Virus record (IMG/VR): IMGVR_UViG_3300045988_053936
DNA: 51,533 nucleotides
Origin: a virus
Direction: 5' to 3' (one strand)
The notes under the pieces were generated by a model. The model searched no databases and had not been told where the DNA came from. It saw nothing but the letters and a program-made list of their open reading frames with translations. The translations under genes and the position numbers were made by a program. Positions 1 through 51,533 of the stretch are shown one piece after another (within the stretch, counting starts at the first letter, position 1; every line of letters starts with the position of its first letter).

Positions 1-119
1 CTTTCTTCTTTGCGGTGTAGATTTTGCGCCGACCAGTCAGGCCATCAACCGGCCATTCGGATATAGCCCGAACAGTATCGTTTTCAGTCACCTTGTCACC
101 TCCAGAACAACAAAAAAAG
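1..119. repeat. Terminal direct repeat (circular assembly overlap or terminal redundancy), identical to 51415-51533
   Basis: Base-by-base identity of 1-119 with 51415-51533. It contains the portal RBS and the first 91 nt of the portal CDS. Confidence 0.95.
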
Positions 120-157
120 TGCCAAGAACAGACCCGTAAAGGTCCACTCTCGGCACT
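111..157 (-). terminator. Intrinsic terminator about 20 nt upstream of the portal RBS
   Basis: In minus-strand RNA a 10-bp stem pairs 157-148 with 127-118, with an inner GACC/GGUC stem, followed by U7 (118-112). One pair is G-U on the minus strand but an A-C mismatch on the plus strand. Confidence 0.65.
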
Positions 158-198
158 CGGCACGCTTCGTCCAGGCATTGCCCGGAGGCACTTGGCAC
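152..198 (-). repeat. GTGCCAAGTGCC motif (198-187) plus variant GTGCCGAGTGCC (163-152)
   Basis: Same 12-mer and orientation as the copies at 2741-2783 and 41864-41890. The variant copy is the 5' arm of the 111-157 terminator. Confidence 0.7.
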
Positions 199-212
199 TA
201 AACTATATATTT

Positions 213-380
213 TCAGGCGCTCTTTTCGCCTTTCAATTCGATTTTAATGTTCTTCTTGCAAGCCTTACAGTATGGGTAAACAATACCAACTGCCTTACTA
301 TCCACCTGCATCAAAAGCCGCCCTTTTCCATGATTGATACCGGCGGCAGCGCAAACAGGACAATAAACGTCAATCTTCAT
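213..380 (-). CDS. Small zinc-ribbon protein (Cys-rich KTR-like), 55 aa
   Basis: ATG at 380 lies 11 nt after GAAAGGAG. Translation MKIDVYCPVCAAAG...YPYCKACKKNIKIELKGEKSA has CPVC...CKAC pairs. It is below the ORF-track length cutoff. Confidence 0.5.
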   Translation of the reverse strand: MKIDVYCPVCAAAGINHGKGRLLMQVDSKAVGIVYPYCKACKKNIKIELKGEKSA

Positions 381-928
381 TCAATGGACGACTCCTTTCG
401 GTCTTTGGCACCGCTCCCGTCTCTCGCAACTGCGAGGCGGCGTATGTGCGCTTCCCGCTTAGATTGTCACACCTGCGTCATATGGATATGCCATATGGTA
501 CTTTACCCGATCCGGTACAGGTAGTTTTCAGCGGGATAGCGCCGGGACAGGTCATAGCTGCCACCGCTTTTTTACCCGACACTATGACTGTCGGCTCTGC
601 CGCATGGAGGGCGCGACCCTCCGACCCTGATTGTGGGCTGCATCGTGCTGCGGCATATGTCCCCGCCAATACTAATACCCGCGTAGGGACGTAGGCGTCA
701 ACGCATTGGAGGGGTATATCGTTATCTTCTCCGCATGTCGGCTTCGATTGCGAAACTCTGGAGCAGGCTAACGTGAAGGGAGTCCCCCGGCAGGAAACGT
801 ACAAGAGAGGCTCTCCTTTCCGTTTAATATCTGCTCACTAGATACCCTGCCGGGGGAGTGGGTTATCCTTTGGGCCGTGGTTGGTCACAGCCCGAAAGGG
901 GAGGAAAATTGGATAATTATGTTTACCC
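381..928 (-). ncRNA. Candidate long structured leader or large ncRNA (class unknown)
   Basis: About 550 nt between a promoter-like element (935-964) and the small ORF, with no SD-preceded ORF. Many GC-rich hairpins, for example 784-794/846-856, 606-622, 576-594 and 479-497. Confidence 0.3.
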
Positions 929-934
929 AAATAT

Positions 935-965
935 ATTATACATCAATCGTTGTTAAGATAACAAC
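935..965 (-). promoter_or_regulatory. Sigma-70-like promoter with overlapping operator-like inverted repeat
   Basis: On the minus strand, TTGTTA (964-959), an 18-nt spacer, then TATAAT (940-935). A perfect inverted repeat GTTGTTA-N3-TAACAAC (949-965) covers the -35 element. Confidence 0.45.
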
Positions 966-1034
966 CTATATATCTATATGTGTCTAATGGTGTTAGGGTC
1001 GGGAGAAATTAACCACTCGGGGGCGATTATCGCC

Positions 1035-1053
1035 TGACGCTAACATGACGCTA
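1035..1053. repeat. Direct repeat TGACGCTA x2, 11 bp apart, just downstream of terL
   Basis: TGACGCTA occurs at 1035-1042 and 1046-1053. The adjacent hairpin GGCGA-TTA-TCGCC spans 1022-1034. Confidence 0.5.
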
Positions 1054-1073
1054 GCAATGGATTATTCGAGATT

Positions 1074-2708
1074 TTAAAATGGCCGCTTAAATACTTCAAC
1101 CTTGTTTCCCTCAAGTTGTTGGACATATTCGGCAAATAGGCTCCACGCATCAGGGACATCATCGTTGCGGTTTTTCCCCGCCATTGTGTAACTACAAAGG
1201 AAATTCAACATCCGCCTATATTCCTTGTCCTTTTTTATGACAGAATTATCCTTGAATAGCACACGATCCTTAATAAACGGACTATTTACTATTATCCGAG
1301 TTTCCTTATTTGAGGTAGTGTATTTCGTCGTGATTTTTGCAATTCCGCCAGCCTCTTTGACTTCTTTCTGCACTTTCTCCGCCACTTTCCCACCGGCGCT
1401 GTTACTTTCAAACTGTCCTATCTGAGCCTTGTGCTGAACGAGTTTCGAGACCAACCGAGCCTCTACAACCTCTGGATTGCTGTTGTCACATACCACATCT
1501 TCGCAGTAGAAGTTATTCCCATATTGATAGCAGATCGGCATGACGCAGTAATCAGTGCCCTTGTCTTTTGTATCGCACACAAACAGAATTGCATCTGGTT
1601 TTCTATCAGGAAGCTCAAAGTACCGGCGCAGCTCATCCTCGCTATACAACTGACCCTCGCGCTCGATAGGCTGGTTCATATAGAGAGCACGCCAACTTGC
1701 ATCGTCCATTACTTCGCGTTGCTCATGATAAAATGCCGTAGTAAACCCAGCGTGGTTCCCGTAGTCAAAGTTACTCTCGTCATTTTCATCTAGCGCTGGC
1801 ATGACAATAAACTCTGCCCGGTTACTTTCCCCGTAGGACTGTTCCAATCGTCCTATAACATCGTGGATTGACCATCGAGTCGCAATATGAAGCTCCTTGC
1901 AATCTCCAATTTTCCGCTGCCGCAAATCTGTTGCGTATAGATTCCAGAGTTTATCCATTCGTTCCTTCGACAGTGCACTCTCCAGGCCATCAACCAGGTC
2001 ATCGCAATAAAGCAGATTTTCAGCTCGGACTTTACCTGCGTTTCCTGACCCAACAGACGAGAACTCCAATGTTGCAAATCGCTTTCCCTTCTTCGGGTCT
2101 GTTCCAAGATCAATCATCATATCCTGGGCGTTGGTCTTGACCACCTTGACTACCGGAAACACGTCATTCCAAAGATAATCCCCCTGCGGGTCCATAATAC
2201 GAATACACTCGTCATATACTCCGCGCAAAAATGCGTTCGAATGAGAACCGCCCAAAATCGGCTTTTCTGGGTTTCTCCCTCCAAGCCAAGTCAGAAAGAA
2301 CAGAGCCAATGTGGTCTTTCCCACTCCAGGGGGAAGAGAGATCGCCAGTAGGTCCAGTTCATTATCGGCCAATCGTTGCAACGCTTTTGCAATCCTGTAT
2401 AACTGCTTCCGTCTGGGCAAGTAGAACCTCTTTGAGGGCTCTCGGTTCCACTCAATATACCGGCAATGCGCATCAAAATCATACGGCGCATCAAACAGCA
2501 GACTCCGCTTGTTCAGCTCGAACATACGGATGCTTTTTTGTTCTGTGGCGAATTTCGCAGACAGCCGCCGCACTTCCTTGTTCCGCTCATGCGCCAGCGT
2601 AAAATCTTCTGGCTCCAACAATCTGATCGAATCAAACGCATCAGATAGCGCAGATGGGTCGGACAAATCTCTCTGAAATGCCCTCTTTACCAACTCCCGA
2701 ATTTCCAT
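1074..2708 (-). CDS. terL: Terminase large subunit
   Basis: Large ORF with Walker-A-like LPPGVGKTT and typical TerL length and architecture. The start was moved to ATG 2708 (MEIRELV), 10 nt after GGAGG. Confidence 0.9.
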   Translation of the reverse strand: MEIRELVKRAFQRDLSDPSALSDAFDSIRLLEPEDFTLAHERNKEVRRLSAKFATEQKSIRMFELNKRSLLFDAPYDFDAHCRYIEWNREPSKRFYLPRRKQLYRIAKALQRLADNELDLLAISLPPGVGKTTLALFFLTWLGGRNPEKPILGGSHSNAFLRGVYDECIRIMDPQGDYLWNDVFPVVKVVKTNAQDMMIDLGTDPKKGKRFATLEFSSVGSGNAGKVRAENLLYCDDLVDGLESALSKERMDKLWNLYATDLRQRKIGDCKELHIATRWSIHDVIGRLEQSYGESNRAEFIVMPALDENDESNFDYGNHAGFTTAFYHEQREVMDDASWRALYMNQPIEREGQLYSEDELRRYFELPDRKPDAILFVCDTKDKGTDYCVMPICYQYGNNFYCEDVVCDNSNPEVVEARLVSKLVQHKAQIGQFESNSAGGKVAEKVQKEVKEAGGIAKITTKYTTSNKETRIIVNSPFIKDRVLFKDNSVIKKDKEYRRMLNFLCSYTMAGKNRNDDVPDAWSLFAEYVQQLEGNKVEVFKRPF

Positions 2709-2709
2709 T

Positions 2710-2747
2710 AAAAAAGTGCCTCCTATCCCGTAGGATAAAAGGCACTT
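2710..2747 (-). terminator. Terminator-like hairpin that sequesters the terL RBS
   Basis: In minus-strand RNA a 15-bp stem pairs 2747-2733 with 2728-2714 (two G-U pairs that are C-A mismatches on the plus strand). It has a UACG tetraloop and a U6 tract ending 1 nt before the ATG. The GGAGG sits in the 3' arm. Confidence 0.6.
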
Positions 2748-2783
2748 GGCACTGTTCGCTCCATCTGGAGAGGCACTTGGCAC
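2741..2783 (-). repeat. Two perfect copies of GTGCCAAGTGCC (2783-2772 and 2752-2741)
   Basis: Read directly, 31 bp start-to-start. The proximal copy is the 5' arm of the terL hairpin. Confidence 0.8.
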
Positions 2784-2793
2784 TCACAATATT

Positions 2794-3330
2794 TTATTTC
2801 TTTTCTTCAAAATTTTCTATCGCATTTATAAACATTTCTCCGCATTTGTCGTATACTTTTTGCCCCAAACCATGCAAAGAAACAAATTCTTCTTTCGTTT
2901 TCGGCTTATATGTTGCAAGTGATACCAATGCATCATTGGTAATCATCACTGGTATCCTGTTATGAAATCGAAAGTCATATAAGAACATTAACATTTTTTC
3001 GTCGGTTAAGATATTCCCGCTATCATCCGCGATCAAATTGAAATCGCCATTCCTAATGTAATTGATTTTCTTTTCCTTTTTAACATGGTATTCTGAATTT
3101 GTTTGGTCATATTCTCCCTTTTTATATTGTTTCCTCAAAATAATGTTTCCATGATAATCCAAAATTTCATATTTCGCGCATTCATCAGCACCAGACAGTA
3201 CCATTTCTCTCCTATGCGCTTTCATTTTCGAGATAAGGTAGTCTTTTCTTTTTGAAATATTGATCGGAATCCCGTTAATGTTCAAAGATAATTGGTCAGG
3301 TTTGGGATACGGTATATCATATTTATACAT
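2794..3330 (-). CDS. Hypothetical protein with C-terminal HRDC-like domain
   Basis: 178-aa ORF in AT-rich DNA. The C-terminus ALVSLATYKPKTKEEFVSLHGLGQKVYDKCGEMFINAI resembles HRDC helices. Confidence 0.45.
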   Translation of the reverse strand: MYKYDIPYPKPDQLSLNINGIPINISKRKDYLISKMKAHRREMVLSGADECAKYEILDYHGNIILRKQYKKGEYDQTNSEYHVKKEKKINYIRNGDFNLIADDSGNILTDEKMLMFLYDFRFHNRIPVMITNDALVSLATYKPKTKEEFVSLHGLGQKVYDKCGEMFINAIENFEEKK

Positions 3331-3332
3331 AT

Positions 3333-3566
3333 TTAATCCTCCGCCGGTTCAGGCCACGGCATCCAGTGAGTTACCTTTGACCCGGCAAATCGGCCAGATG
3401 CCCACCCACATGCAAGTCCATCATCTTCCCAAACCTCATAAAAACCGTTGTGCCATCTTGCCTGTGTCTTCCACACATATCTATGCTTATCCATCCAACT
3501 TTCAATCGTGATAAGAATTAGTTCCCCGTCTGTCGGCATCCTATCAGCGCATTTGATCCAGTCCAT
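3333..3566 (-). CDS. DUF551-like protein
   Basis: MDWIKCADRMPTDGE...THWMPWPEPAED matches the DUF551 pattern. A paralog lies at 14550-14912. Confidence 0.6.
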   Translation of the reverse strand: MDWIKCADRMPTDGELILITIESWMDKHRYVWKTQARWHNGFYEVWEDDGLACGWASGRFAGSKVTHWMPWPEPAED

Positions 3567-3849
3567 TTTGTTCGGACACCCTCCCCTGAATTTTATTCAT
3601 TATCTCCATGAAATCTTTTTGTCTTTCGATCAATGCTTCTGCCTGTTGCTTCATTCTTACATATGCTTCAATCGTCTTTATACTTCTCATAACGCAAAAT
3701 CCGCAGACAATAGCGCAGAATAATCCTGAAATGATTGAAAACAGCCTTCCTGATACCATACCCCACATGAAATTACCGGCCCCAAACGCTACTGCAAACA
3801 AACAAAACACAATCAGAGCCTTGCTGTTCCGTATTGCCTTCTTATACAT
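3544..3849 (-). CDS. Small membrane protein (two predicted TM segments plus coiled coil)
   Basis: Hydrophobic stretches ALIVFCLFAVAFGAG and LFSIISGLFCAIVCGFCV. ATG 3849 lies 8 nt after GGAG. Confidence 0.55.
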   Translation of the reverse strand: MYKKAIRNSKALIVFCLFAVAFGAGNFMWGMVSGRLFSIISGLFCAIVCGFCVMRSIKTIEAYVRMKQQAEALIERQKDFMEIMNKIQGRVSEQNGLDQMR

Positions 3850-3882
3850 ATTCAAATCTCCTTTTTTGTTTTGCGCGGAATT

Positions 3883-3978
3883 TTAGTCCGATCTCCTTGC
3901 CAGCACATACCACTGACTCCTGCTAATTCCCATCTGCTTACAGGCGGCTGCTACTGTGATGGAGCCGTCTTTTTGCAT
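3883..3978 (-). CDS. Possible 31-aa resolvase-type HTH mini-ORF
   Basis: MQKDGSITVAAACKQMGISRSQWYVLARRSD resembles the C-terminal HTH of serine recombinases. There is no clear SD, so it could be a gene remnant. Confidence 0.25.
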   Translation of the reverse strand: MQKDGSITVAAACKQMGISRSQWYVLARRSD

Positions 3979-3989
3979 TTTGAAAAATT

Positions 3990-4328
3990 TCAGGCCGGTT
4001 CACTTGAAATCCATTTATCATTCGTCAAAAGGTTCATCAGATAATTTACCCGCTTGCCAAACAATGTTTTCCCCATATTCATGTAAATCATCAGCCCAGA
4101 AAGAATTGCGGCATCACCTGTGTCGTTTTCTGACTGCGGCTTGAATGTGTATCCCTCGTTTTCAAAAACAATAGTGCAATTTTTCTCTTTTGCTATCCAA
4201 AGGAACGCAGGCAAATCTTCTGGGTTTTTCTCAAATCGAAAAACAGAATCTATGTGCATCGTTCCATTCTCTACAACTTTTTCTTCAAGATAAGACAACA
4301 GGCCATGATTGAACACTTTTTCATCCAT
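3990..4328 (-). CDS. Hypothetical protein (112 aa)
   Basis: ATGA start/stop overlap with the recombinase gene. AT-rich. No family recognised. Confidence 0.55.
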   Translation of the reverse strand: MDEKVFNHGLLSYLEEKVVENGTMHIDSVFRFEKNPEDLPAFLWIAKEKNCTIVFENEGYTFKPQSENDTGDAAILSGLMIYMNMGKTLFGKRVNYLMNLLTNDKWISSEPA

Positions 4329-4939
4329 CAGTTATCCTCCTTATAGTATCTGTCCAGTTTCGGGTCATACTGTCCGTGGCTTTCCTCCCACTTTGCAACC
4401 CTTCGATAAAATGTGTTCGGCTTTAACCCAAGATTGCTCATTGCCTTTTTTGCTGTAATGATTTTTGAACGCCATGCCTTGTATTGTTCCTCAAAATCAG
4501 CATCCTCGATTTTAATAGGAACACGCCCCTTATACTCTCCGCGAGCTTTCTTCAATTCAATTCCTTCTTGCTGGCGCTCGCGGATGCACTCTCTCTCAAA
4601 CTGGCTGATGGACGCGAGAATAGTCAGCAACATCCGTCCCGCCGGAGTCTTGGTATCAATCGTCTCCTTCTGGCTGATGAACTCGACACCCTTCGCCGTC
4701 ATAATATCTGTGATTTCCAAAAGGTCTTTTGTACTCCTTGCAAGACGGCTGAAACTCTCAACAATAATCGTATCGCCCTCCCGCATAAAGTCCAACATGG
4801 CTTGCAACTGCGGCCTCTGCATATTCTTTCCGCTACACATATCAATATAAACCTTATCAACGCCAAGCCGATCCATAAGAACCTCCTGGCGTTCCGGGTT
4901 CTGCGTTACGCTCGAACACCTAACATATCCAATCTTCAT
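4328..4939 (-). CDS. Small serine recombinase (resolvase/invertase family)
   Basis: The N-terminus MKIGYVRCSSVTQNPERQ carries the catalytic Ser motif and the C-terminus has an HTH (TFYRRV). It has its own promoter and an AAAGGAGG RBS. Confidence 0.85.
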   Translation of the reverse strand: MKIGYVRCSSVTQNPERQEVLMDRLGVDKVYIDMCSGKNMQRPQLQAMLDFMREGDTIIVESFSRLARSTKDLLEITDIMTAKGVEFISQKETIDTKTPAGRMLLTILASISQFERECIRERQQEGIELKKARGEYKGRVPIKIEDADFEEQYKAWRSKIITAKKAMSNLGLKPNTFYRRVAKWEESHGQYDPKLDRYYKEDN

Positions 4940-4961
4940 TTACTCCGCCTCCTTTGACTAT

Positions 4962-4990
4962 ACTATACCATGTGTTTCTTTATGTGTCAA
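4962..4990 (-). promoter_or_regulatory. Promoter of the recombinase cassette
   Basis: On the minus strand, TTGACA (4990-4985), a 17-nt spacer, then TATAGT (4967-4962). An imperfect palindrome TTGAAA-N4-TTTCAA at about 4998-5013 lies just upstream. Confidence 0.6.
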
Positions 4991-5218
4991 TAGAATTTTG
5001 AAATATTTTTCAAATAAAAGGTCTTTTTGAGCGTGTCGCACAATTCGGTGGTGAGGTAGGGGGGCGGGCGCTTTCTCTACCCCCCAGGGGTGTACCGGCC
5101 CGCAATCCGGCTTGTCATATAGGTATACTCAATGGAAACGCTGGTTTCACATATAATATATGTGTCGCATGGGTTCTTGTTCCATTGAAAATTATTTCAT
5201 TTAATCAATAAAACCCTA

Positions 5219-5247
5219 TTGACATATATAACCAAATATGCTATCAT
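5219..5247 (+). promoter_or_regulatory. Promoter of the plus-strand small-ORF cassette
   Basis: TTGACA (5219-5224), a 17-nt spacer, then TATCAT (5242-5247). Confidence 0.6.
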
Positions 5248-5300
5248 ACAATCACAGCAAGGGAAACCGAGCTGAATTCACCGGGCAGGAGGTAAACGAA

Positions 5301-5432
5301 ATGGAGATTGATAGCATGACCCAAACCGAATTAGCGTCATACCTCGAAACACTGGCAAGGCTGGTAGAGGCCACGGCCAAGGACGCACAGGACGCGGCCC
5401 GCATTATCCGAGAGGCCATCCCCAAGCAGTAA
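5301..5432 (+). CDS. Hypothetical small protein (43 aa)
   Basis: ATG 5301 follows CAGGAGG. The track start at 5238 lies upstream of the predicted transcription start. Confidence 0.5.
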   Translation: MEIDSMTQTELASYLETLARLVEATAKDAQDAARIIREAIPKQ

Positions 5433-5571
5433 AAAAAGATAGCCGCCCTACCCTGAACAAGTAAGCGGCTATCTAACAAAGAACACGGGGCGGCATGGCC
5501 TGCCACATGTCGCCCCTAGTGTAACACAACCGGCAGGGAAAAGCAAGGCCACAGGCCGGGAGGGAAAGAAA

Positions 5572-5724
5572 ATGAAGCATTATCAAGTGATAGCATTAAA
5601 CAGGAGCACGGGCGCAATGGACTACACAAGCAAATTATTATCATGGCGAGAAGTAAACCAAATATATTTTGACTCTGTAAAAAACCACACTAACCACGAG
5701 ATCGTTATTGTGACCAACAAATAA
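5572..5724 (+). CDS. Hypothetical small protein (50 aa)
   Basis: GGGAGGGAAAGAAA precedes the ATG. Translation MKHYQVIALNRSTGAMDYTSKLLSWREVNQIYFDSVKNHTNHEIVIVTNK. Below the track cutoff. Confidence 0.45.
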   Translation: MKHYQVIALNRSTGAMDYTSKLLSWREVNQIYFDSVKNHTNHEIVIVTNK

Positions 5725-5772
5725 AAGCCCCGGCCACCGCTCGCAACAGTGACCAGGAAGAAAGGAGAAAAC

Positions 5773-5973
5773 ATGAGTTATTGCCAATACATGGAGCACT
5801 GGAAAAATCATCGAAAAGATCGTTATACGCAACCATTATTTTACGCAGAAATGGCCGCAAGTCTCCAGGGCGACGGCTTTACAATCCTGTTTGATGATAG
5901 CAGCATCAGCGCAAAGGCAAACGCCGCAAACCGGGCAGCGGTCAACAAGGCCGCAAGGAGGGTCGCGCAATGA
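5773..5973 (+). CDS. Hypothetical small protein (66 aa)
   Basis: AAAGGAG lies 5 nt before ATG 5773. ATGA overlap with the next ORF. Confidence 0.55.
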   Translation: MSYCQYMEHWKNHRKDRYTQPLFYAEMAASLQGDGFTILFDDSSISAKANAANRAAVNKAARRVAQ

Positions 5974-6275
5974 AAATGAATCAGCTTTTCACCGCCTATT
6001 ACGCAGATAGAACGGCAGTTTATGAAAAAAGCCTTGATTATATCTATTCGCATAACCCGGACAATTTAAGAGAAATCCGCCCCACAATTTGGCTTTGGAA
6101 AGGAAATATTTCCCCTGTTTTCTTCGTGGACTATGTGGGCGATGGTGTGGGCTGTACCCTTGCCACATTCGACAATTTAGCAGACGCGCAGAAATACCGG
6201 GAGCAAATCGGGGAAATGACCGAAGAAGAGTTTGAAAACTGGCTCATAAATGAGCGATGGGCGGCGCGGTCTTGA
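5970..6275 (+). CDS. Hypothetical protein (101 aa)
   Basis: Translationally coupled ORF. No family recognised. Confidence 0.6.
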   Translation: MKMNQLFTAYYADRTAVYEKSLDYIYSHNPDNLREIRPTIWLWKGNISPVFFVDYVGDGVGCTLATFDNLADAQKYREQIGEMTEEEFENWLINERWAARS

Positions 6276-6305
6276 CCCGCCCGCCGGAGAATGGAGAATA
6301 TTACA

Positions 6306-6458
6306 ATGGCTAAAACGCTTGATGAAATTCAGATTGACCGGCTTTATGACCTGCTCCGCCGGGCGGAACGTGAGCGGGATACCGAAAGCGCCGCCGCGCT
6401 CCGCTGGGCCATTTTTACGCTGGAAATGGAGGCAAAAAATGAAAAAATCAGTCCTTGA
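6306..6458 (+). CDS. Hypothetical small protein (50 aa)
   Basis: GGAGAA lies 7 nt before the ATG. Translation MAKTLDEIQIDRLYDLLRRAERERDTESAAALRWAIFTLEMEAKNEKISP. Confidence 0.45.
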   Translation: MAKTLDEIQIDRLYDLLRRAERERDTESAAALRWAIFTLEMEAKNEKISP

Positions 6459-6711
6459 CCGTATCGCGGCCCGGCTTATGGCCGTAGGTATACAGACAGA
6501 CAGCAGCGCGATCTATCGCTCCACCGCAGACGATGCGGAGCCGGTCCCGGTGCTTATTGCCCGGCATAACTACAACGGGCCATATCCCACGCGTGAGACC
6601 TGGCAAACCATCGAGACAGTCCGCCGCATCTGCAAGCGGTATAATGTCGCGCTGGATATGCGCGGATACTACCAAGCAACCTATATCCGCGAGGAGGTGA
6701 CCCCCGAATGA
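6439..6711 (+). CDS. Hypothetical protein (90 aa)
   Basis: ATG 6439 (MKKSVLD) lies 6 nt after GGAGG, an internal start within track ORF 6250-6711. Confidence 0.55.
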   Translation: MKKSVLDRIAARLMAVGIQTDSSAIYRSTADDAEPVPVLIARHNYNGPYPTRETWQTIETVRRICKRYNVALDMRGYYQATYIREEVTPE

Positions 6712-6917
6712 GCTATCAAATCATCACATACAGCCCCGATATAGGGACAGACGAACGCGGGGACTACAAAACCCAAAAAGAGGCCCGGCAAGCACTCAAG
6801 CAATACCGGCAAGAGGCCGGGGCGCTGATCTACGATCTCGACCGTTGGTGCATCGTCTACCGGCGCGGCTACTGGCCCGCCGGGGCGCTCCCTGTTGAAA
6901 GGGGGTGCCTTGCTTGA
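6708..6917 (+). CDS. Hypothetical protein (69 aa)
   Basis: ATGA overlap with the upstream ORF. Confidence 0.55.
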   Translation: MSYQIITYSPDIGTDERGDYKTQKEARQALKQYRQEAGALIYDLDRWCIVYRRGYWPAGALPVERGCLA

Positions 6918-7022
6918 TCGTACTTTTTATTCTGCTCCTACCGCTCATGGTGATATGGGAGCTTGCCAAAAAATCTTGACGGCCTCAAGCGGGCGAGATA
7001 CAATCAATAAGAGGTGCTATAC

Positions 7023-7355
7023 ATGAGATTGTCCCCAGATATGATCCAGCGCGTTGAGAATATAGCCGCCAGCGCGTTATATAACTATGAGGCCGTGGGC
7101 GTCCGCGTCCAGGATGTCCCGTTTTCTCCCGGCACTATGTCCCACTGCTCCCATATCTGGGACAACGGAGACGATACCGGCGAGGAGCTGCCCGGCGTGT
7201 CTGCTATGCGTTGGGACTCCATCAACGAGGCGCAACGGCACGGCTACTATTACGGCGATTATGTGGCCGTCATTGCTGGCAACTCGTGGGACTACGGCGA
7301 GGACTCTGGGGAGATCGTCATACATGACCCGATTGTAATTGAGATATTAGCATAA
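7023..7355 (+). CDS. Hypothetical acidic protein (110 aa)
   Basis: ATG 7023 follows AAGAGGTG. It is followed by a strong terminator. Confidence 0.6.
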   Translation: MRLSPDMIQRVENIAASALYNYEAVGVRVQDVPFSPGTMSHCSHIWDNGDDTGEELPGVSAMRWDSINEAQRHGYYYGDYVAVIAGNSWDYGEDSGEIVIHDPIVIEILA

Positions 7356-7363
7356 TACCACCG

Positions 7364-7398
7364 CCCGCCCTGGAGCTTCCTGGGGCGGGTTTTCTTTT
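7364..7398 (+). terminator. Intrinsic terminator ending the plus-strand cassette
   Basis: CCCGCCC (7364-7370) pairs with GGGCGGG (7383-7389), followed by TTTTCTTTT. Confidence 0.75.
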
Positions 7399-7634
7399 GC
7401 TCATGTCCCTATGCCCTCCAGTAGCTTCCCGCCGCTTGTGTGGCCTCCTATGGTCAGCAGGCGGCATTTTTGCGCCCGTATCCAGCGGGGCAGGAGAAAG
7501 GTAAAACGCAAAGCTTCAGTAAAGGCCATTTGCAGGCCCGCAAGGCGGCCTTGCCACCCTGTAGTGTCCCTATATTTCCACTCGCCAAAACGGCCCATAG
7601 CGGCCCGCACAGCGCCACACAAGGCATAAAGCAA

Positions 7635-7682
7635 CCCCGGCCCACTCCATCAGGGAGCAAGCCGGGGTATTATTATTTGTTG
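7635..7682 (+). terminator. Orphan terminator-like hairpin in an ORF-poor spacer
   Basis: CCCCGGC (7635-7641) pairs with GCCGGGG (7661-7667), with an inner CUCC/GGAG stem and a T-rich tail TATTATTATTTGTT. Confidence 0.35.
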
Positions 7683-7819
7683 CGGGCCAGGGAGAGAACA
7701 GCGCAACGGCTCTTGTTTGCGTCCTACCGGGCGCAGCGGGAGCCGGGGCACAAATACATATCGTTCAAAGTGATACCACCGCTTGCTCGGCATCCACTCA
7801 TAAGCAGAGGGCAAAATTT

Positions 7820-7926
7820 ATAGTCGATAACTCCTGACGGATTTTCATCCATAGTCGCAGCCTCCAAATAGTCGTTTCATAGTCCTTTGACTTCCAAAAA
7901 GTTCCTGAAATAGTCGCTGATAGTCG
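7820..7926 (+). repeat. Six same-orientation ATAGTC(G/C) repeats downstream of terS (candidate pac or protein-binding array)
   Basis: Repeat starts are at 7820, 7851, 7868, 7879 (ATAGTCC), 7910 and 7920, giving spacings of 31, 17, 11, 31 and 10 bp. Further copies lie at 8337, 8466 and 8754, with near copies at 8538 and 8694. Confidence 0.7.
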
Positions 7927-7927
7927 T

Positions 7928-8467
7928 TTACTCCTCCACCACCACAGACCCGGCGATCCGCTCTTCAAGCTGCTTTTGGTCGGTTATAGTCCCTAGCGGA
8001 TTGTTGGGAGTAAGAACAACCTCGGATTTGTCCACAAGGCCGTCATAGTTCTTTTGCCACCATACTAAAGTTACCGGATTTAGCTTGCCGTCAGCGCCCA
8101 ACATTTCGCGGTAAGCGGCGCAAAATTTCTTAACTTTTTTAATGAATTCGGAGTGCGCAGAGCTGCGTGAACGCCCATTTTCCCAATCATACACTTCATC
8201 TTTGTTCAAGCCAAGTGCAAGGTATGTTACTTGATTGGTCACTCTAACGTCATGCTCCGAACAATAGTGAACGAACTTCCAGAACCTATCTTCCAGAGCT
8301 TGAACATCGGACTTATCAACATCCCCCCAACTAAGGATAGTCGCAAGCACTCCAGCATACTTAGCATTGTCGCCGGGCTGAGTATGTACCCCGTTATCTC
8401 CAATCACAGGTGAGTTCCCGCCTCTTGGCTTCATCTTGCGCTTAACAAGTTCTTTCCCCTGCTCCAT
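7928..8467 (-). CDS. terS: Terminase small subunit (putative)
   Basis: GLNKDEVYDWENGRSRSSAHSEFIKKVKKFCAAYREMLG...NPVTLVWWQKNYDG resembles the TerS HTH plus oligomerisation region. The start at MEQGKE (8467) follows the upstream stop. Confidence 0.6.
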   Translation of the reverse strand: MEQGKELVKRKMKPRGGNSPVIGDNGVHTQPGDNAKYAGVLATILSWGDVDKSDVQALEDRFWKFVHYCSEHDVRVTNQVTYLALGLNKDEVYDWENGRSRSSAHSEFIKKVKKFCAAYREMLGADGKLNPVTLVWWQKNYDGLVDKSEVVLTPNNPLGTITDQKQLEERIAGSVVVEE

Positions 8468-8474
8468 AGTCGTA

Positions 8475-8954
8475 TCATTCTTGTTCAGAGTTGTCACCCT
8501 CCTCCACGACATCAAATCTATCATCATGTCTCCATCCATAGTTGTAAGGTTTGATAGCGTTGCAGATCAAGTCTTTGCAGATGTTCATAAAGTCTTTTAC
8601 CTGTTGCTCCGTTAGTTTTCCGTCTCCCCATGATTGCGCGGATTGCAAAGCATCACATCCAGAACAGGACCCATACCACGCAAAAGTCATGAGATAGTCT
8701 TCCGGGTCCGGCTGGTAGGAATTGAATGGAATCAGATAAATCAAAGTCCCTTGATAGTCGCCATCATCAATTTCGTGAACTCTGTCTATAAAAAGATTCT
8801 CATTGTCGAGTCGGCTATCATCATTATAAATCTTATCAAAGGCAATCTTTACAAGGTCTACATAGCTACATTCATTCAGATCATCTCTTGAGGACAGTTC
8901 TGTTCTGAGCTTATCCTTGTTTTTATCCCAGAGTTCTTTCATGATTTTTAACAT
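8475..8954 (-). CDS. Hypothetical protein (159 aa)
   Basis: AT-rich ORF in the operon that leads to terS. Confidence 0.6.
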   Translation of the reverse strand: MLKIMKELWDKNKDKLRTELSSRDDLNECSYVDLVKIAFDKIYNDDSRLDNENLFIDRVHEIDDGDYQGTLIYLIPFNSYQPDPEDYLMTFAWYGSCSGCDALQSAQSWGDGKLTEQQVKDFMNICKDLICNAIKPYNYGWRHDDRFDVVEEGDNSEQE

Positions 8955-30630: not shown

Positions 30631-31011
30631 TCAATCCTCCATCCAGTAATACAACACGGTCTTTCCACCGCTGTTCCAAGTATCTACGATGCGCCCGTCA
30701 AAGACGCAGACAATATGAGTGTCCAATGCTAGCAGATAGACGCCATAGGGATGCTGATGAGCGAACTCCTGCACAGTTATATCCTCGTACTCTGGTAGAT
30801 AGCGCCGCCAGCCTTTACGACGGAGATATTTGCCCCAAACAGGATTTCCTGACGGCATATCTGCGGCAAGGTAGCCCTCCCAGCATAGTCCCCAATAGGT
30901 GGTGTCCCAATCCTGATCTAGGGCAACGGAAATTGCCCTGACGGTGCAATCGCCTACGTTCTTTCCGTCTCTATTGGCGTTGTAATATTCAAACGTACTG
31001 TTTCCTGTCAT
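30631..31011 (-). CDS. Hypothetical protein with possible Cys/His peptidase-like motifs
   Basis: Contains NVGDCTVRAIS and LDTHIVCVFDG. The start is uncertain (31011 or 31026, with no clear SD). Confidence 0.4.
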   Translation of the reverse strand: MTGNSTFEYYNANRDGKNVGDCTVRAISVALDQDWDTTYWGLCWEGYLAADMPSGNPVWGKYLRRKGWRRYLPEYEDITVQEFAHQHPYGVYLLALDTHIVCVFDGRIVDTWNSGGKTVLYYWMED

Positions 31012-31234
31012 CGTACAAAAGCTCATTCTGTCGGATAAACCGTTCCAATCCGGAGAAGTCTCCCTCCGCCGCATACTTCTCGCAGGTGTCTCTTGCTGTG
31101 GACTCCGTGAAGCCGCAGGCCACCAGCCGGGCCACCAATTCAGCACCATTCAAAATCAAATCAAACACGTCCTTATCAGTGAAATCAGGAGGCCGCAAGG
31201 AGGGCGGCGACGTGTACCAGCCCTTGATCCTCAC
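30989..31234 (-). CDS. Hypothetical protein (81 aa)
   Basis: GTG start only 2 nt after GGAGG, so the start is uncertain. Confidence 0.4.
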   Translation of the reverse strand: MRIKGWYTSPPSLRPPDFTDKDVFDLILNGAELVARLVACGFTESTARDTCEKYAAEGDFSGLERFIRQNELLYDDRKQYV

Positions 31235-31350
31235 GTCCTCCTATTGATATTGTCGCATAAAAAAACTTCCGCTGGGTGGCATCTATGTGGGAGATATGAG
31301 GGGAGTGTGTATTATGTATGCTGGTATCTGAAGAATTTTGCAAAAATGTG

Positions 31351-38238: not shown

Positions 38239-41200
38239 TCATGTAATGGGAGAGCCCTTTTCTCGCTGCGTCTGTTGGTTGTATTTGTACAGGCTCCTCG
38301 ACACCTGACGGCCATCCAGAGAAACTGTTGTATCTTTATCGTTGACTGCCTTAGTAATCATTGCACCGATTGCCATGACCGCATTGATGACTCCGGTATT
38401 AGCAGAAGCGATACCGTCAACGATTTGGTCATTGTTCGCCACCGCTGCTCGGTTGCCCATTTGACCAACTAGCTCAGGCCCATCCTCACGGGCAATGAAC
38501 ATTTGCCCATGCTCGGGGAAGCCGCCGGACGCGTATGCAGTGATATCCTGAACAGAATAGCTGTTGGCCGAACGGGAAGAAGAATTTTCCGAACTATACG
38601 ATGCGCCATTCCCGAGATTTTTGATGGCATCTTGCAGCAGGCCAGAACTGGTGAATCCCTTATACATGTTATCTGCCATTTGCTTTCCTAGATTTTCAAA
38701 CTGGCTCATATCAATAGATTGGCTAAAATGATTGATTTCCGTTTTCAAATCTTCCATTCCATCAATACCGGCGTCTCCAACTCCAGATTCTTCTTGCTTT
38801 AACCCAATAATAGAATCTGTAAGACCTTGAGTTTCACTTTGAAGATCACTGTATAGCTGAACCGATTGCATGTATGTTTCCTGTGCGGCTTTTGCCGCTT
38901 CGGTTTCTTTCTCTCTTGCAGCGACAAGTTCTCTGGCTTTCCCCCAACTGAAAATGTCTGTTTCGTTGAGTTCTTTTTGTGTGTTATTTAATGCTTCTGC
39001 GGCCGCATCATAATCCTTTGCCGCCTGTTGCATATCACGCATTGCCTGATATTGCTCTTTATAACTCTCAACAAGCATTTCTCGCAGGGCTTCCATTTTG
39101 GCCTCTCGCTCCAAAGAATCAATCAGCTCGTCAACGGCGGCTTTACTTTCTTTAACTCGTTGTGTTGTTTCATCAATTTCCAAATGTAGCCCATCAATGT
39201 TCAAATCGTTCAGAACTTGAACTTTTACCGCCATTTGATCTAATTCATAAGCAGATGCATTTGCATTATCGTTAATGGCATAAATTTCATCTGCAAGCTG
39301 TCTGGCAACTTGGAAATCAGCAATAGACGAATCAAAATCTTCTAAACGATTTTTCATATTGGTAAACGCTTGGTCTGTGCGTTCAGACGCTTCTGTGCAA
39401 CGGTCAAGAATGTCCGCCATGATTGCAAAATCTTCTGACGCCGCATACGCCGCATTTGCTGCCGTTTCTACACCAACAATTTCGAGAACAATGCCAACAC
39501 CAAGTCCGATAACGGCACCAGCAGCAGTACCAATAACAGGAACAACGGAGCCGATTCCCGCACCAGTTAATACAGACCCGAGTATTGTCATCAGTCCACC
39601 AGAAAGAGTTGCAGCGCCCTCTTTAATTTGTGCAGTAATTCCCATAATCACAAGAGATAATCCAACCCCGATTACTAGACCGAAAGCGGCTCCAGCTCCT
39701 CCAGCAATGACTGCGCCGATGCCAAATCCAGCCAAAGCTCCGCCAATGAGGCCCATGATCCCATTTCCAATATTAAGCCCATCTTGAAGAATCGACGTGA
39801 TAGACGAAATCAAGAGAGACACGCCAATTCCTGCAATTATGCCACCAAGAACCCCTTGCGCAGGATTTAGATTTTTTCTGAATGCAAAGTATCCGCCAAG
39901 CGCTCCTCCAGCCAATGCACCGCCAATAGCACCTAAAAGGACATTCCCAAAGTTCAGTCCGTCTTTGATTTGAGAGGCAATGGACATGACCATCAAGGAA
40001 AGTCCAAGACCGACAACAGCTCCAAGCAGCATTCCGCCAGCCCAAGTGAGGCCAAGTTTCTTAGCCAAAAGCAGGCCAAGTCCAGCCCCAGCAAGTGCTC
40101 CTCCAGCTGCGCCTTTTAGGATGTTTTCCCATGTTAGCCCATCCCCAAAAAGAATGTCTTTTACACTGTCAATTAGCAAAGAAATACCTACCGTGAACAT
40201 CAACCCGCCTAGCAAAGCCTTGAGGCGGCCGATATCTGTAAACAACGTCCTTGCAATTCTCCACGCAAGCAGTGCAGAACCGATGGGAATGATATAGTTG
40301 TCAAGCAAGTCTTTCAAAACAGGTTTGATTTCGTCCACTTGCTTTTTTAACGCATCAAGGGCGGTTTTGTCCCAAATATCCGGTATTTCAAGATCGTCGG
40401 TCCATTTTCCGACTTCTCCAGTATCCAATTTGATTTCGTTGGATGCACCAATGATATTTAGTTCATCGATTCCTAAAAGCTGCTGCTTTAGCTTTTTTAA
40501 TTCGTCAGTTGTATCGCCAACGGAATCGGCAGCGGAGTCAGCATTTTCTTTGATATCTTCTCCCCAATCATTGGTTTCCCATTCCGGCATTTCAAATCCG
40601 ACCAGAACAGCAAACCGCTGAATTGCCTCCGTCAATATCTCAACAAATGCTTGAACCCATGGGATTACCTGAATGAGGATAGGAACAAACACCGTGCCAA
40701 TCGCTCGACCAAGCTGAGTAATTTGCTGGCGCAGCACTCTCATAGCATTTGCGGGGGATTCCAAGGTTTTTGCAAAATCTCCAATAGCCCCGATCCGGGA
40801 GGCCCCCTCCATCAGAACCAGACTCCGCAGTAATGCCTTTTCCTGTTCTGTCATAGACATAACGCTTTCATCAATGCCATGAGCAAGCGCATATTCCTGT
40901 AAGGTGGCCTGACTAATCGAAATACCTAAGCGACGGATAGGCTCAATTTCGCCAGCAAGGGCAGACTGCAAACGTAAGACCGACTGTTCTGTGTCCTCGT
41001 TATACAGAGAACTCAGGTCATAGGCCAGTTCTGTCAAGCCCTCGCTTAGGTCATAAGCTTGTTGCCGTGCTAACCCAAAACCGTTTGCCATAGACATGAA
41101 CACGCCTTGCGCACGCATCCACTCTTCGGGGTCGATGCCAAGTCGGTCATTGACCAGCATGGCATAGTTATAGGCTTCGTCATAAAACTCACCCATGGAG

Positions 41201-41841
41201 ACCTGAAACAAATTGACTGTCTCAACGTAGTCATTAGCCGACTTTATCCAGCCGGAAATAACATCGGCAAGTCGCTTAAATGCTAAATAATAGATACTAA
41301 ATTTAGCTGCCGCAGAACTGATACCAGTTCCAAGAACGCCAAAACTTCTTGCCGCTCTGCTATTTGATGCCGTCAGACTTGCGTTGCTCTGAATAAGCCT
41401 CTGAATTCTGATCGGAAATGCTGAAAATCCATTGGATACCTTCTGCATTTCTGTCGCTAGCGGCCGCACAGCAGCGGCCACCTGCTCCATCTGCTTTGCG
41501 AATTTACCAAGGTCTGTCTTTTCGAGCGACGCACTAATCTCAGGAAGTTTTTTTAGTGCGTTGATCGCGGAGGAAAGGCCGCTTGCTTTTTGGATACCAG
41601 CCAAGCTATTCATTGCAGCCGTGAACTCTTTTATTTTTCCACTATTCAGATTTGCGCCATTGATTAGCTTTGCTGCTTCCGAAAGTGCCTTTAACTGCTT
41701 TGTGGTGGTTGTAAGCCCCGCCCCTCCTTTAGCCGCAGTTTTTAACCCGGTCAATGCAGTAGTAAGCGCCTCAATCTTCTTTGCTGCATCACTGGACGTC
41801 GCCTCGATTTCAATTTGCAGGCTATCAATATCTACGGCCAT
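38239..41841 (-). CDS. Tape measure protein
   Basis: 1200 aa with a helical N-terminus and multiple Gly/Ala-rich TM-like repeats, positioned after the G/GT chaperones. Confidence 0.9.
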   Translation of the reverse strand: MAVDIDSLQIEIEATSSDAAKKIEALTTALTGLKTAAKGGAGLTTTTKQLKALSEAAKLINGANLNSGKIKEFTAAMNSLAGIQKASGLSSAINALKKLPEISASLEKTDLGKFAKQMEQVAAAVRPLATEMQKVSNGFSAFPIRIQRLIQSNASLTASNSRAARSFGVLGTGISSAAAKFSIYYLAFKRLADVISGWIKSANDYVETVNLFQVSMGEFYDEAYNYAMLVNDRLGIDPEEWMRAQGVFMSMANGFGLARQQAYDLSEGLTELAYDLSSLYNEDTEQSVLRLQSALAGEIEPIRRLGISISQATLQEYALAHGIDESVMSMTEQEKALLRSLVLMEGASRIGAIGDFAKTLESPANAMRVLRQQITQLGRAIGTVFVPILIQVIPWVQAFVEILTEAIQRFAVLVGFEMPEWETNDWGEDIKENADSAADSVGDTTDELKKLKQQLLGIDELNIIGASNEIKLDTGEVGKWTDDLEIPDIWDKTALDALKKQVDEIKPVLKDLLDNYIIPIGSALLAWRIARTLFTDIGRLKALLGGLMFTVGISLLIDSVKDILFGDGLTWENILKGAAGGALAGAGLGLLLAKKLGLTWAGGMLLGAVVGLGLSLMVMSIASQIKDGLNFGNVLLGAIGGALAGGALGGYFAFRKNLNPAQGVLGGIIAGIGVSLLISSITSILQDGLNIGNGIMGLIGGALAGFGIGAVIAGGAGAAFGLVIGVGLSLVIMGITAQIKEGAATLSGGLMTILGSVLTGAGIGSVVPVIGTAAGAVIGLGVGIVLEIVGVETAANAAYAASEDFAIMADILDRCTEASERTDQAFTNMKNRLEDFDSSIADFQVARQLADEIYAINDNANASAYELDQMAVKVQVLNDLNIDGLHLEIDETTQRVKESKAAVDELIDSLEREAKMEALREMLVESYKEQYQAMRDMQQAAKDYDAAAEALNNTQKELNETDIFSWGKARELVAAREKETEAAKAAQETYMQSVQLYSDLQSETQGLTDSIIGLKQEESGVGDAGIDGMEDLKTEINHFSQSIDMSQFENLGKQMADNMYKGFTSSGLLQDAIKNLGNGASYSSENSSSRSANSYSVQDITAYASGGFPEHGQMFIAREDGPELVGQMGNRAAVANNDQIVDGIASANTGVINAVMAIGAMITKAVNDKDTTVSLDGRQVSRSLYKYNQQTQREKGSPIT

Positions 41842-41863
41842 ATTGCCACCACCTTTCTATATT

Positions 41864-41890
41864 GGCACTTGGCAATAAAGCACTTGGCAC
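41864..41890 (-). repeat. GTGCCAAGTGC (41890-41880) plus TGCCAAGTGCC (41874-41864) motif pair upstream of the tape measure
   Basis: Same orientation as the motif copies at 152-198 and 2741-2783. Confidence 0.7.
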
Positions 41891-41950: not shown

Positions 41951-41990
41951 AGAAATAAAACGGCCCTCCGCCTATTCCTAAGCGGAGGGC
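41951..41990 (-). terminator. Terminator of the lipoprotein moron
   Basis: A 9-bp stem GCCCUCCGC/GCGGAGGGC is followed by CGUUUUAUUU on the minus strand. Confidence 0.7.
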
Positions 41991-49421: not shown

Positions 49422-50033
49422 TCACTTTTTCTCCGCCGGGGTATACCAGCACCGACAACCAGGGTGGGGCTTGCTTGGTATGCTCCGGATGGGATAAATT
49501 TTCCCGTCTCGTTCCTTACAAGCGGAGCACTCACGCCCGTCATTCATGGTGTTCCATTTCACATAGCGCACACCGCTGTCTTGAAATGCTTTCAGTGTGG
49601 ATTGGTCTGTGACTTCCACCGCATACCATTCCGTCATCTGCGCCCAGTAGGAAAGGCCCCGTCGAAACTCTGTGACCTTTGCGGTGGTCGAGTTAATAGC
49701 CTCCGCTGTGCGGTCACGCTTGCGCTCCCATTCGTGGGAATACTGGTATTTCGTCACAGCGTTGTACGCCGCCAGCAATGCCAGTAACCACGCTAAATCA
49801 GGTGGTTCCTTTCCGTGCGGTTCGGCCTCCTGATACCGCTCTTGCGCCAGTTCAAGAAAGATTTCCTGATTATCATGGGCGAGGTCTTGATACAGTGTTC
49901 GGGTGACTTCCAGCACATTGAGTTCATCAAATTTCGCCAGTGCCGCTTCGTCTTTGGCATCCTCAAACCGCTTGACCGCCCTCCTGTTCAAAATATCGAT
50001 GGCTTTGTCAGTGAGGTCATAGAATCCGCTCAT
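49422..50033 (-). CDS. Minor head protein (Mu F / SPP1 gp7-like)
   Basis: The C-terminal VKWNTMNDGRECSACKERDGKIYP...PHPGCRCW motif is present. ATGA overlap with the portal gene. Confidence 0.75.
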   Translation of the reverse strand: MSGFYDLTDKAIDILNRRAVKRFEDAKDEAALAKFDELNVLEVTRTLYQDLAHDNQEIFLELAQERYQEAEPHGKEPPDLAWLLALLAAYNAVTKYQYSHEWERKRDRTAEAINSTTAKVTEFRRGLSYWAQMTEWYAVEVTDQSTLKAFQDSGVRYVKWNTMNDGRECSACKERDGKIYPIRSIPSKPHPGCRCWYTPAEKK

Positions 50034-51505: not shown

Positions 51506-51533
51506 CTTGTCACCTCCAGAACAACAAAAAAAG
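51415..51533. repeat. Terminal direct repeat, identical to 1-119
   Basis: See the feature at 1-119. Confidence 0.95.

Follow-up and report, generated by a model that had tools for sequence, protein, structure and literature searches.

The stretch analysed here, hereafter the window, is IMG/VR virus record IMGVR_UViG_3300045988_053936, 51,533 nucleotides (nt) long. Because its ends carry a direct repeat of 119 base pairs (bp; 1..119 = 51415..51533), the contig is circular, with an assembly of ~51.4 kb. Its minus strand encodes the large terminase subunit (terL), a zinc-ribbon protein of 55 amino acids (aa), the portal protein and the tape measure protein. An element of one and the same kind, a tandem pair of a short motif whose second copy provides the 5' side of a hairpin, precedes terL, the portal gene and the tape measure gene. 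This element, which we call the module, is our subject, together with the zinc-ribbon protein as its candidate trans-acting factor. We begin with the copy before terL, where the hairpin resembles an intrinsic terminator and holds the ribosome binding site (RBS) of the gene.

Modules before terL, the portal gene and the tape measure gene

Read 5' to 3' on the minus strand, the region before terL runs GUGCCAAGUGCC UCUCCAGAUGGAGCGAACA GUGCCAAGUGCC UUUUAUCC UACG GGAUAGGAGGCACUU UUUU A AUG, the last three letters being the terL start codon. The first-pass annotation of this DNA had described a 15-bp stem with a tetraloop, leading straight into U6-A-AUG. The coordinates and the pairing are right, but one or two of the six Us lie inside the stem and the free tail is U4-5; it is followed by A2709 and the terL ATG (2708..2706). 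Two of the 15 pairs are U.G, and the proposal that these make the structure specific to the sense RNA is borne out by folding: the sense RNA folds with -23.9 kcal/mol (z = -8.0 against 200 shuffles), and the antisense strand with -18.0 kcal/mol and an internal loop where the two U.G pairs turn into C-A. We therefore regard the strand asymmetry as real. The only GGAGG available to terL does lie within the 3' arm (2723..2719), as had been noted, and GGAGG, GGGGG or GGGAGGG is kept in every terL-type variant among the relatives. The hairpin combines a stable, G+C-containing stem with a U-tract directly 3' of it, two of the marks of an intrinsic terminator. It was also picked up by a simple terminator scan of the window, which overall was not enriched over shuffled sequence (13 found, 8.4 expected).

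The hairpin can be placed relative to terL with some assurance. Matches to terL in tblastn searches of relatives, down to 62% identity, start at residue 1, and ATG 2708 is therefore the true start. The spacer between the motif copies upstream of terL differs in length among relatives (2, 3, 17, 19 or 20 nt), so that any reading frame from the GTG at 2783 would be broken.

The terL hairpin is the 3' part of a larger module (module B), the last GUGCC of the second motif copy being the 5' base of the hairpin. In general, a module consists of A-GUGCCAAGUGCC, either 2-3 nt or a small hairpin and a linker, and a second GUGCCAAGUGCC, the GUGCC of which pairs with a downstream GGCAC; the closed stem is stable and sits directly on the U-tract. 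At no more than one mismatch, the window holds six copies of the 12-mer GTGCCAAGTGCC, with 0.29 expected and 0 of 100 shuffles reaching six. All six copies are on the minus strand and form three adjacent pairs, one each before terL, the portal gene (module A) and the tape measure gene (module C); in 3/3 modules the second copy provides the 5' side of the hairpin. A TATCCT hexamer that had been reported 3 nt after the motif is indeed present at 2737..2732, that is, 3 nt past copy 2 of module B (2752..2741).

Copy 1 of module B begins 11 nt past the stop codon (2794) of an upstream open reading frame (ORF) for an HRDC-domain protein, and copy 1 of module A begins 14 nt past the stop codon of the zinc-ribbon gene. 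Module A is also strand-asymmetric (sense -27.3, antisense -17.4 kcal/mol). Its RBS lies outside the hairpin, with GGAGG at 103..99 and, after it, the GTG start of the portal gene (91..89, identical to 51505..51503 through the terminal repeat). The stem of module C ends 0 nt before the tape measure AUG (41841); as it has no U-tract, this module would be an RBS mask only. The same arrangement recurs before the tape measure genes of relatives. Coordinates are collected in Table 1.

Table 1. Positions of the modules, their parts and the neighbouring genes and signals in the window.
Feature	Coordinates	Strand	Basis
terL, terminase large subunit, 544 aa	1074..2708	-	phrog_38, E = 2.9e-57; relatives match from residue 1
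Module B (before terL)	2783..2710	-	motif pair and terminator-like hairpin
Module B motif copy 1, GTGCCAAGTGCC	2783..2772	-	exact 12-mer
Module B spacer: small hairpin CUCC-AGAU-GGAG (2770..2759), then linker CGAACA	2771..2753	-	long spacers in relatives also fold
Module B motif copy 2; last 7 nt AAGUGCC are the base of the hairpin 5' arm	2752..2741	-	sequence, fold
terL hairpin (terminator-like and RBS mask), 15 pairs, UACG loop	2747..2714	-	fold, terminator scan, covariation in relatives
Hairpin 5' arm, AAGUGCCUUUUAUCC	2747..2733	-	sequence
Hairpin loop, UACG	2732..2729	-	sequence
Hairpin 3' arm, GGAUAGGAGGCACUU	2728..2714	-	sequence
terL Shine-Dalgarno GGAGG, within 3' arm, 10 nt 5' of AUG	2723..2719	-	sequence
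U-tract T6; first 1-2 Ts pair with As at 2747/2746	2715..2710	-	sequence
Module A (before portal gene)	198..112	-	motif pair and terminator
Module A motif copy 1	198..187	-	exact 12-mer
Module A motif copy 2, GTGCCGAGTGCC	163..152	-	motif search
Module A terminator: 19-bp stem (158..117) and T7 (118..112)	158..112	-	fold, terminator scan
Portal gene, reached from module A across the circular junction	50030..51505	-	PF05133, E = 9e-65
Module C (before tape measure gene)	41890..41842	-	motif pair and RBS-masking hairpin
Module C motif copy 1, GTGCCAAGTGCT	41890..41879	-	motif search
Module C motif copy 2, TTGCCAAGTGCC	41875..41864	-	motif search
Module C hairpin: copy 2 pairs with RBS-containing GGUGGUGGCAA	41876..41842	-	fold; like arrangement in relatives
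Tape measure protein gene	38239..41841	-	phrog_1535, E = 2e-35
55-aa Cys4 zinc-ribbon gene, candidate trans-acting factor (Com-like)	213..380	-	co-occurrence, hhalign, AlphaFold model
Promoter-like site upstream of zinc-ribbon gene (candidate)	964..935	-	promoter scan
Strong conventional terminator without motif, just upstream of module C	41990..41963	-	sequence
Best sigma-70-like promoter upstream of terL, TTGACA-17-TATAGT with TG	4990..4962	-	consensus match only
terS, 203 aa	7928..8539		phrog_606

Conservation among relatives and the candidate factor

We then compared the module among terL relatives in IMG/VR, of which there were more than 590, and in at least 120 further stretches found by a pattern scan. 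Upstream sequence was sufficient in 72 relatives, and 62 of these (62-98% terL identity) have the tandem motif no more than 110 nt from the terL start. In the motif-bearing relatives a hairpin and U-tract directly precede the terL start, changes in the stem being compensatory, and the genes on the upstream side represent at least four unrelated contexts. Within each locus the motif copies are on one strand, and this is the late-gene strand in the loci that could be oriented by their proteins. The module was found in hundreds of IMG/VR contigs. The hosts of the phages that bear it are Gram-positive Clostridia, Oscillospiraceae and related groups, and among 54 genome contigs the motif occurs only in the prophage of Flavonifractor sp. 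An92 (NZ_NFGZ01000002.1, locus L199), a cultured host, which has five sites and the zinc-ribbon gene as well. There are three modules in the window and up to five in relatives (L199), placed before portal, tape measure and other late genes.

Among the 118 distinct modules gathered from all loci, the motif hardly varies, and the inner stems are free to covary. In 108 of the 118 (92%), all five bases of the last GUGCC pair to close the hairpin, as against 17% when the downstream sequence is shuffled. Its 3' partner in these 108 is GGCAC (75), GGCAU (13), GGCGC (13), GGUAC (5) or AGCAC (2), all of which retain pairing, mostly through wobble. At least five Ts occur in the 8 nt after the stem in 101/108 module hairpins. 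The hairpins comprise 57 distinct forms, whose unrelated inner stems span 22-46 nt, and the median stem energy is -19.5 kcal/mol. When 39 distinct stem bases were aligned by anchoring at the base, 92.8% of cells were paired (73.6% when shuffled), a percentage inflated because the register was taken from folding each sequence; cells changed on both sides numbered 91, compared with 34 in shuffles. The covariation score was 0.61, compared with 0.23 when shuffled (0/500 shuffles reached it) and 0.11-0.17 in slid registers. Variants without a U-tract precede tape measure genes and a tail or capsid-like gene; in these the Shine-Dalgarno sequence is buried instead, as in AGUGCCUCC...GGAGGUACU-AUUUU-AUG.

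The suggestion of the first-pass annotation that transcripts entering from upstream would be terminated or translationally masked before terL gains comparative support from the conserved hairpin and its compensatory changes. The hairpin is, moreover, always paired with a tandem motif overlapping its 5' base, as would be expected for a terminator controlled by a factor. At gathering thresholds Rfam reported only a RAGATH-31 RNA elsewhere in the window and no family at the module, and at E <= 10 it gave nothing relevant in 2650..2850; megablast of 1000-5000 against INPHARED phages gave no match. Searching a literature library for the motif string and for comparable systems, we found there neither a description of the module nor anything comparable.

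Several features indicate that the element acts as RNA. The spacers between the two motif copies fall into two classes, 15 distinct ones of 2-3 nt and 22 distinct ones of 17-29 nt. All 22 long spacers, differing in sequence, fold into a hairpin right after copy 1, followed by an A-rich linker of 5-7 nt (mean fold -6.0 kcal/mol, compared with -2.2 for shuffled spacers). Such a hairpin keeps the copies adjacent in RNA and not in DNA, and would therefore make no sense for a DNA-bound dimer. Upstream of copy 1, 49 collapsed contexts are just A/T-rich, with only position -1 (A) conserved. No -10/-35 at a fixed distance is conserved across them, which again argues for action as RNA and led us to reject a promoter upstream of copy 1 as a general feature. 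Copy 1 can follow directly on the stop codon of the gene before it (TAAAGTGCC, TAGTGCC), and the module is therefore intercistronic. Downstream of the motif, base-pairing and the T run are the only conserved features, so that a promoter inside the hairpin is ruled out; the TATCCT hexamer that might have formed part of one reads TATCTT in most relatives and TCTCAA in the group with 62% terL identity.

Which protein might act on the repeats? Homologs of the 55-aa zinc-ribbon protein (45-100% identity) were present in 125 of the loci searched. Of the terL loci whose downstream sequence extended for 2.5 kb or more, 99 had both the motif and the zinc-ribbon gene, seven had neither and none had one only, a co-occurrence that is confounded by synteny and shared ancestry, the gene adjoining one of the modules. 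The seven negative loci (terL identity 62-77%) are interleaved with positive ones. In 50/69 distinct contexts a module lies within 150 nt downstream of the zinc-ribbon gene, and in 16/69 it lies elsewhere in the locus; the stop codon of the gene is 1-20 nt before the portal module in 50/69. Source annotations call the family hypothetical or cysteine-rich protein. The AlphaFold (AF2) model of the 55-aa protein is a confident beta zinc ribbon, with a predicted local distance difference test (pLDDT) score of 91.7. A sequence search of the PDB with the protein gave nothing informative, and Pfam and NCBIfam detected no CAT/PRD, ANTAR or HutP domain in it, other window proteins not having been scanned exhaustively. 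Two other candidates for the factor were rejected: the conserved 203-aa protein at 7928..8539 is terS, and the HRDC protein upstream of module B occurs in six loci only.

A different version of the system came from four distant lineages, L222, L223 (terL 40-43% identical), L332/L333 and L334, which have the layout of the window with another repeat. Here a near-consensus sigma-A promoter is followed by a zinc-ribbon gene of 43-52 aa, by (A)GAGCC-N2-6-GAGCC, the second GAGCC being the 5' base of a terminator, and then by U-tract, RBS and portal gene; in L223 a GAGCC element precedes terL too. As judged from these sequences, the architecture is retained while the repeat changes together with the protein. 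A locus search of viral contigs with two GAGCC-class proteins found nothing, and a protein search found three clusters. By hhalign, the GAGCC-class proteins match the window's zinc-ribbon family with 95.9% probability and Com of phage Mu (its sequence verified against the phage) with 93.7% (E = 2e-7; 37% of residues identical in the zinc finger).

The RNA site recognized by Mu Com is 5'-CC(N)2-3GAG-3', and selection in vitro (systematic evolution of ligands by exponential enrichment, SELEX) gave the tandem motif NGAGNNCC(N)2-3GAGNNCCNN (PMC6483171). Its site adjoins the translation-inhibition hairpin that buries the start signals of mom, and Com opens this hairpin (PMC6483171). The repeat junctions are CC-AAA-GAG in L223, CC-AAC-GAG in L332 and CC-GU-GAG in L334, and the GAGCC repeat, by its sequence, fits the published RNA site of Mu Com. 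The junction in the window, CC-AA-GUG, present twice per 12-mer pair, has the form of a Com site with U for A.

The surroundings of the zinc-ribbon gene hold further features. A half-motif, GUGCCAAAG, at 403..411 on the minus strand, ~20 nt upstream of its RBS, could be an autoregulatory site or a chance match. The gap of ~550 nt between terL and the gene (381..930, minus strand) contains no credible ORF and folds with -222 kcal/mol (z = -5.9), far better than shuffles. A core of ~65 nt (~663..595) is common to many relatives at ~80% identity, with differing flanks; Rfam gave no match in the gap even at E <= 1. The region may hold a large structured RNA, or it may serve the factor gene as a regulatory leader. 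In two loci of Flavonifractor type (L053, L199) a tRNA-like sequence, GGGTAGCTCAGATGG..., follows right after the zinc-ribbon stop codon and replaces the portal module, which lies further downstream.

A model of local control and its alternatives

We think it probable, with a good deal of room for doubt, that the modules are conserved RNA cis-regulatory elements opened by a Com-like protein: bound to the repeats, it would keep the base of the stem from pairing, so that transcription can continue past the U-tract and the RBS is exposed. By default the stem would form and RNA polymerase would stop at the U-tract, and any RNA produced by read-through would have the terL Shine-Dalgarno sequence locked in the 3' arm. 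The module would thus insulate terL from upstream transcription, here that of an island with an invertase gene. In the activated state, the 55-aa zinc-ribbon protein would bind the four single-stranded GUGCC words on the nascent RNA and deny the stem the five to seven base pairs next to the U-tract. When both motif copies were blocked in silico, the stem fell from -23.3 to -8.0 kcal/mol, and the remaining 8-bp hairpin lay 7 nt from the U-tract. With the repeats bound, termination would be expected to fail and the RBS to be largely accessible. One protein would presumably act at every module, at terL, portal and tape measure genes here and at up to five sites in relatives. Because every hairpin has its own site and the RBS-only modules use the same motif, the action is most likely local and not processive. 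Positive feedback is predicted, since the factor gene has the terL module on one side and the portal module on the other. The three routes by which terL was suggested to escape the hairpin fare differently: antitermination or unmasking is the one we favour, RNA processing is conceivable though nothing points to it, and initiation inside the hairpin is unsupported, TATCCT not being conserved, the inner stems varying and no upstream -10/-35 being conserved.

A number of points count against this model. We infer termination, the binding of RNA and the sign of regulation alike. No Pfam or NCBIfam model matches the window's zinc-ribbon family, for which there were only sub-threshold hits to generic zinc ribbons, and Foldseek with the AF2 model gave no informative structural neighbour. 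Compared directly with Mu Com, the family gives a weak hhalign match (62.7%), and Pfam PF10122, which recognizes Mu Com (36.8 bits), gave no hit to any zinc-ribbon protein at E <= 10. Support for placing them in the Com family is therefore partial, coming from profile-profile comparison and not from the Pfam model. Since the factor gene itself lies beyond the terL module, leakage or a separate promoter would be needed for it to be expressed at first. Several lineages have good promoters for it, and none was found within 260 nt upstream of it in the closest relatives of the window. The hairpin of module C is weak (-11.0 kcal/mol, z = -1.8). To these must be added the confounded co-occurrence of motif and gene and the folding-derived register of the covariation analysis.

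Alternative readings keep the repeats in the RNA and change what they do. Processive antitermination, in which the repeat RNA, either alone or together with the zinc-ribbon protein, would join RNA polymerase in the manner of lambda N-nut or HK022 put and render it generally resistant to terminators instead of occluding the adjacent stem, would suit repeats that lie in nascent RNA just 5' of terminators at several sites per genome, resembling nutL/nutR and putL/putR, and the strong motif-less terminator ahead of module C would need to be passed too. It does not require, however, that each hairpin have its own site or that the last pentamer be the stem base, as it is in 108/118 modules. A modified polymerase would also be no help at the RBS masks that lack a U-tract and use the same motif; we consider this reading unlikely. 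The sign of regulation might also be the opposite one, the zinc-ribbon protein stabilizing the stem or blocking the ribosome as an autoregulatory attenuator or repressor that keeps the dosage of late genes down, with basal read-through being enough. The position of the gene immediately upstream of a module makes autoregulation plausible, and in several lineages the gene's strong, constitutive-looking promoter reads on into the terminator. Nevertheless, the stems at the median energy given above, on good U-tracts, are already strong and need no help. Nor is there a conserved antiterminator fold for a repressor to displace, and Mu Com, the homolog, activates by opening a hairpin (PMC6483171). 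A negative role is in our view very unlikely.

Other readings take the repeats out of RNA control altogether. They might be DNA sites for a late activator or part of a late promoter, transcripts beginning inside or after the hairpin and so lacking its 5' arm, and the hairpin then merely stopping early transcripts. The motif does stand before several late gene blocks, like P2 Ogr sites or late-promoter boxes, with A/T-rich sequence ahead of it; weak sigma-70-like matches end near copy 1 of modules A and B, and two zinc-ribbon homologs gave Ogr_Delta hits in Pfam, albeit below threshold (E = 0.007-0.014). Against this, only the A at -1 is conserved in the 49 upstream contexts, with no promoter elements at a fixed distance. 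The downstream sequence and its length vary freely except for pairing, TATCCT included, and the switch of copy spacing between 2-3 nt and 17-29 nt with a hairpin fits RNA and not a DNA-bound dimer. Moreover, hhalign of the protein family with P2 Ogr gave 1.1%, and homology to Ogr/Delta was rejected. A DNA-level element is accordingly rather hard to credit, though somewhat less so than the negative role above. Finally, the hairpin might be the ordinary terminator of the upstream operon, and the repeats unrelated to it (a pac site, a site of terS binding) or selfish. Terminators often separate gene blocks, repeats close to terminase genes are a usual mark of pac sites, and terS is present. But the stem carries the RBS of terL and ends 1 nt before its AUG in at least four unrelated upstream contexts, and is therefore terL's own. 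Modules also precede portal, tape measure and other late genes, three to five per genome, without exception on the coding strand and joined to a hairpin. A pac site, by comparison, would be expected once per genome in or near terS and would act as double-stranded DNA, whereas here there are three strand-specific, hairpin-fused sites and terS is 5 kb away. We regard this last explanation as extremely improbable.

Under the model that we prefer, local relief by a Com-like protein, the closest precedent is Mu Com with its translation-inhibition hairpin (TIS). In both, a tiny Cys4 zinc-finger protein is encoded immediately upstream of a target on the same transcript, the RNA site, here a predicted one, consists of short repeats ending in CC, 2-3 nt apart (PMC6483171), and the site is directly 5' of a hairpin burying the start signals of the next gene, as found here at terL and tape measure; profile comparison links the proteins by way of the GAGCC class. 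The Mu system, however, has a single target, a non-essential DNA-modification gene, and affects translation only, whereas here there would be three to five core morphogenesis targets per genome and most hairpins, with their U-tracts, also have the form of intrinsic terminators. In addition, the site overlaps the stem base, where that of Mu occupies a small hairpin of its own, GUGCC is the repeat in place of GAG..CC, the host lineage is Gram-positive Clostridia, and the zinc-ribbon proteins fall short of the Pfam Com model.

Other systems share parts of the arrangement. As with BglG/SacY/LicT at the ribonucleic antiterminator (RAT), ANTAR proteins (EutV, AmiR) and HutP, a site in the leader RNA, here a predicted binding site, overlaps the 5' arm of a terminator and action would be local and non-processive; the bipartite or tandem site recalls the dual hairpins of ANTAR proteins or the repeats of HutP. 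The protein is unrelated to these, no stabilized alternative hairpin is evident, and the element is phage-encoded, governs structural genes and is combined with RBS masking. Lambdoid late antitermination (Q at PR'-qut-tR', N at nut) likewise has a terminator before late genes that is overcome by a phage factor. Q, however, loads at a single promoter-linked DNA site with a sigma-dependent pause and is processive, whereas here there is no conserved promoter, each hairpin has one motif pair and the site is part of the stem. At the trp leader of B. subtilis, short repeated RNA words 2-3 nt apart also overlap a structure controlling terminator and RBS, but TRAP, a ring of 11 subunits, displaces an antiterminator and so promotes termination, while binding by the zinc ribbon is predicted to prevent it. 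What would set the system apart from Mu Com and from the antiterminators that occlude a terminator is a multi-site regulon of essential late genes, the use of terminator hairpins, a site fused to the stem base, GUGCC specificity and Clostridia hosts.

More broadly, we would give an even chance to the proposal that a widespread and hitherto undescribed family of Com-like mini zinc-ribbon RNA-binding proteins runs the late programme of Clostridia gut phages through multi-site, dual-function hairpins, opened by binding pentamer repeats at the stem base. Protein and repeat appear, from the sequences compared, to have diverged in concert into two or more specificities, among them GUGCC and GAGCC. 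If so, the Mu Com paradigm, so far that of a single gene, would be extended to global control of virion genes, and transcription antitermination would be added to the roles of the protein family. For the timing of late genes in temperate phages of gut Clostridia, the element offers a concrete candidate mechanism. The apparent co-variation of protein and repeat is a route to a recognition code for RNA by mini zinc fingers and to compact orthogonal regulators; a protein of ~50 aa paired with an RNA of ~30 nt would make a natural orthogonal switch. In annotation, late operons can be delimited by the motif.

Genomic context and other leaders

In the window, terS and terL are parted by an island of ~5 kb (2794..7900), which contains genes for a serine invertase (4328..4939), a DUF551 protein and the HRDC-domain protein, and also a block of plus-strand genes equipped with promoters and terminators of their own. 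In relatives this place is taken by other inserts. The operon that runs from the invertase to the HRDC gene and reads into module B is headed by the sigma-70-like promoter listed in Table 1, the best one upstream of terL. The RAGATH-31 RNA detected by Rfam is full-length (RF03101, 80.3 bits; 31188..31241, minus strand) and lies directly upstream of an ORF of 172 aa (30631..31149); it was considered as an antisense partner of the GUGCC motif and rejected, there being no complementarity.

More distant terL relatives have other leaders. In one type, a hairpin with an AUAACxGG-type loop is followed by GUCAACAGGGAC, in which GGGAC is the 5' base of a terminator (GUCCC and a U run). This leader sits before terL and again ~4 kb downstream, and was found in loci L224 (9940), L226 (3665), L228 (9944/13948), L232 (9894/13965), L236 (8269/12255), L240, L250 and L227. 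By its sequence it looks like an analogous system with another factor, and the existence of such leader classes in the terL clade suggests that there are further systems of this kind. A third leader type, in L200 and L206, consists of ACACGCACC, a hairpin, GGUAGACG and a terminator.

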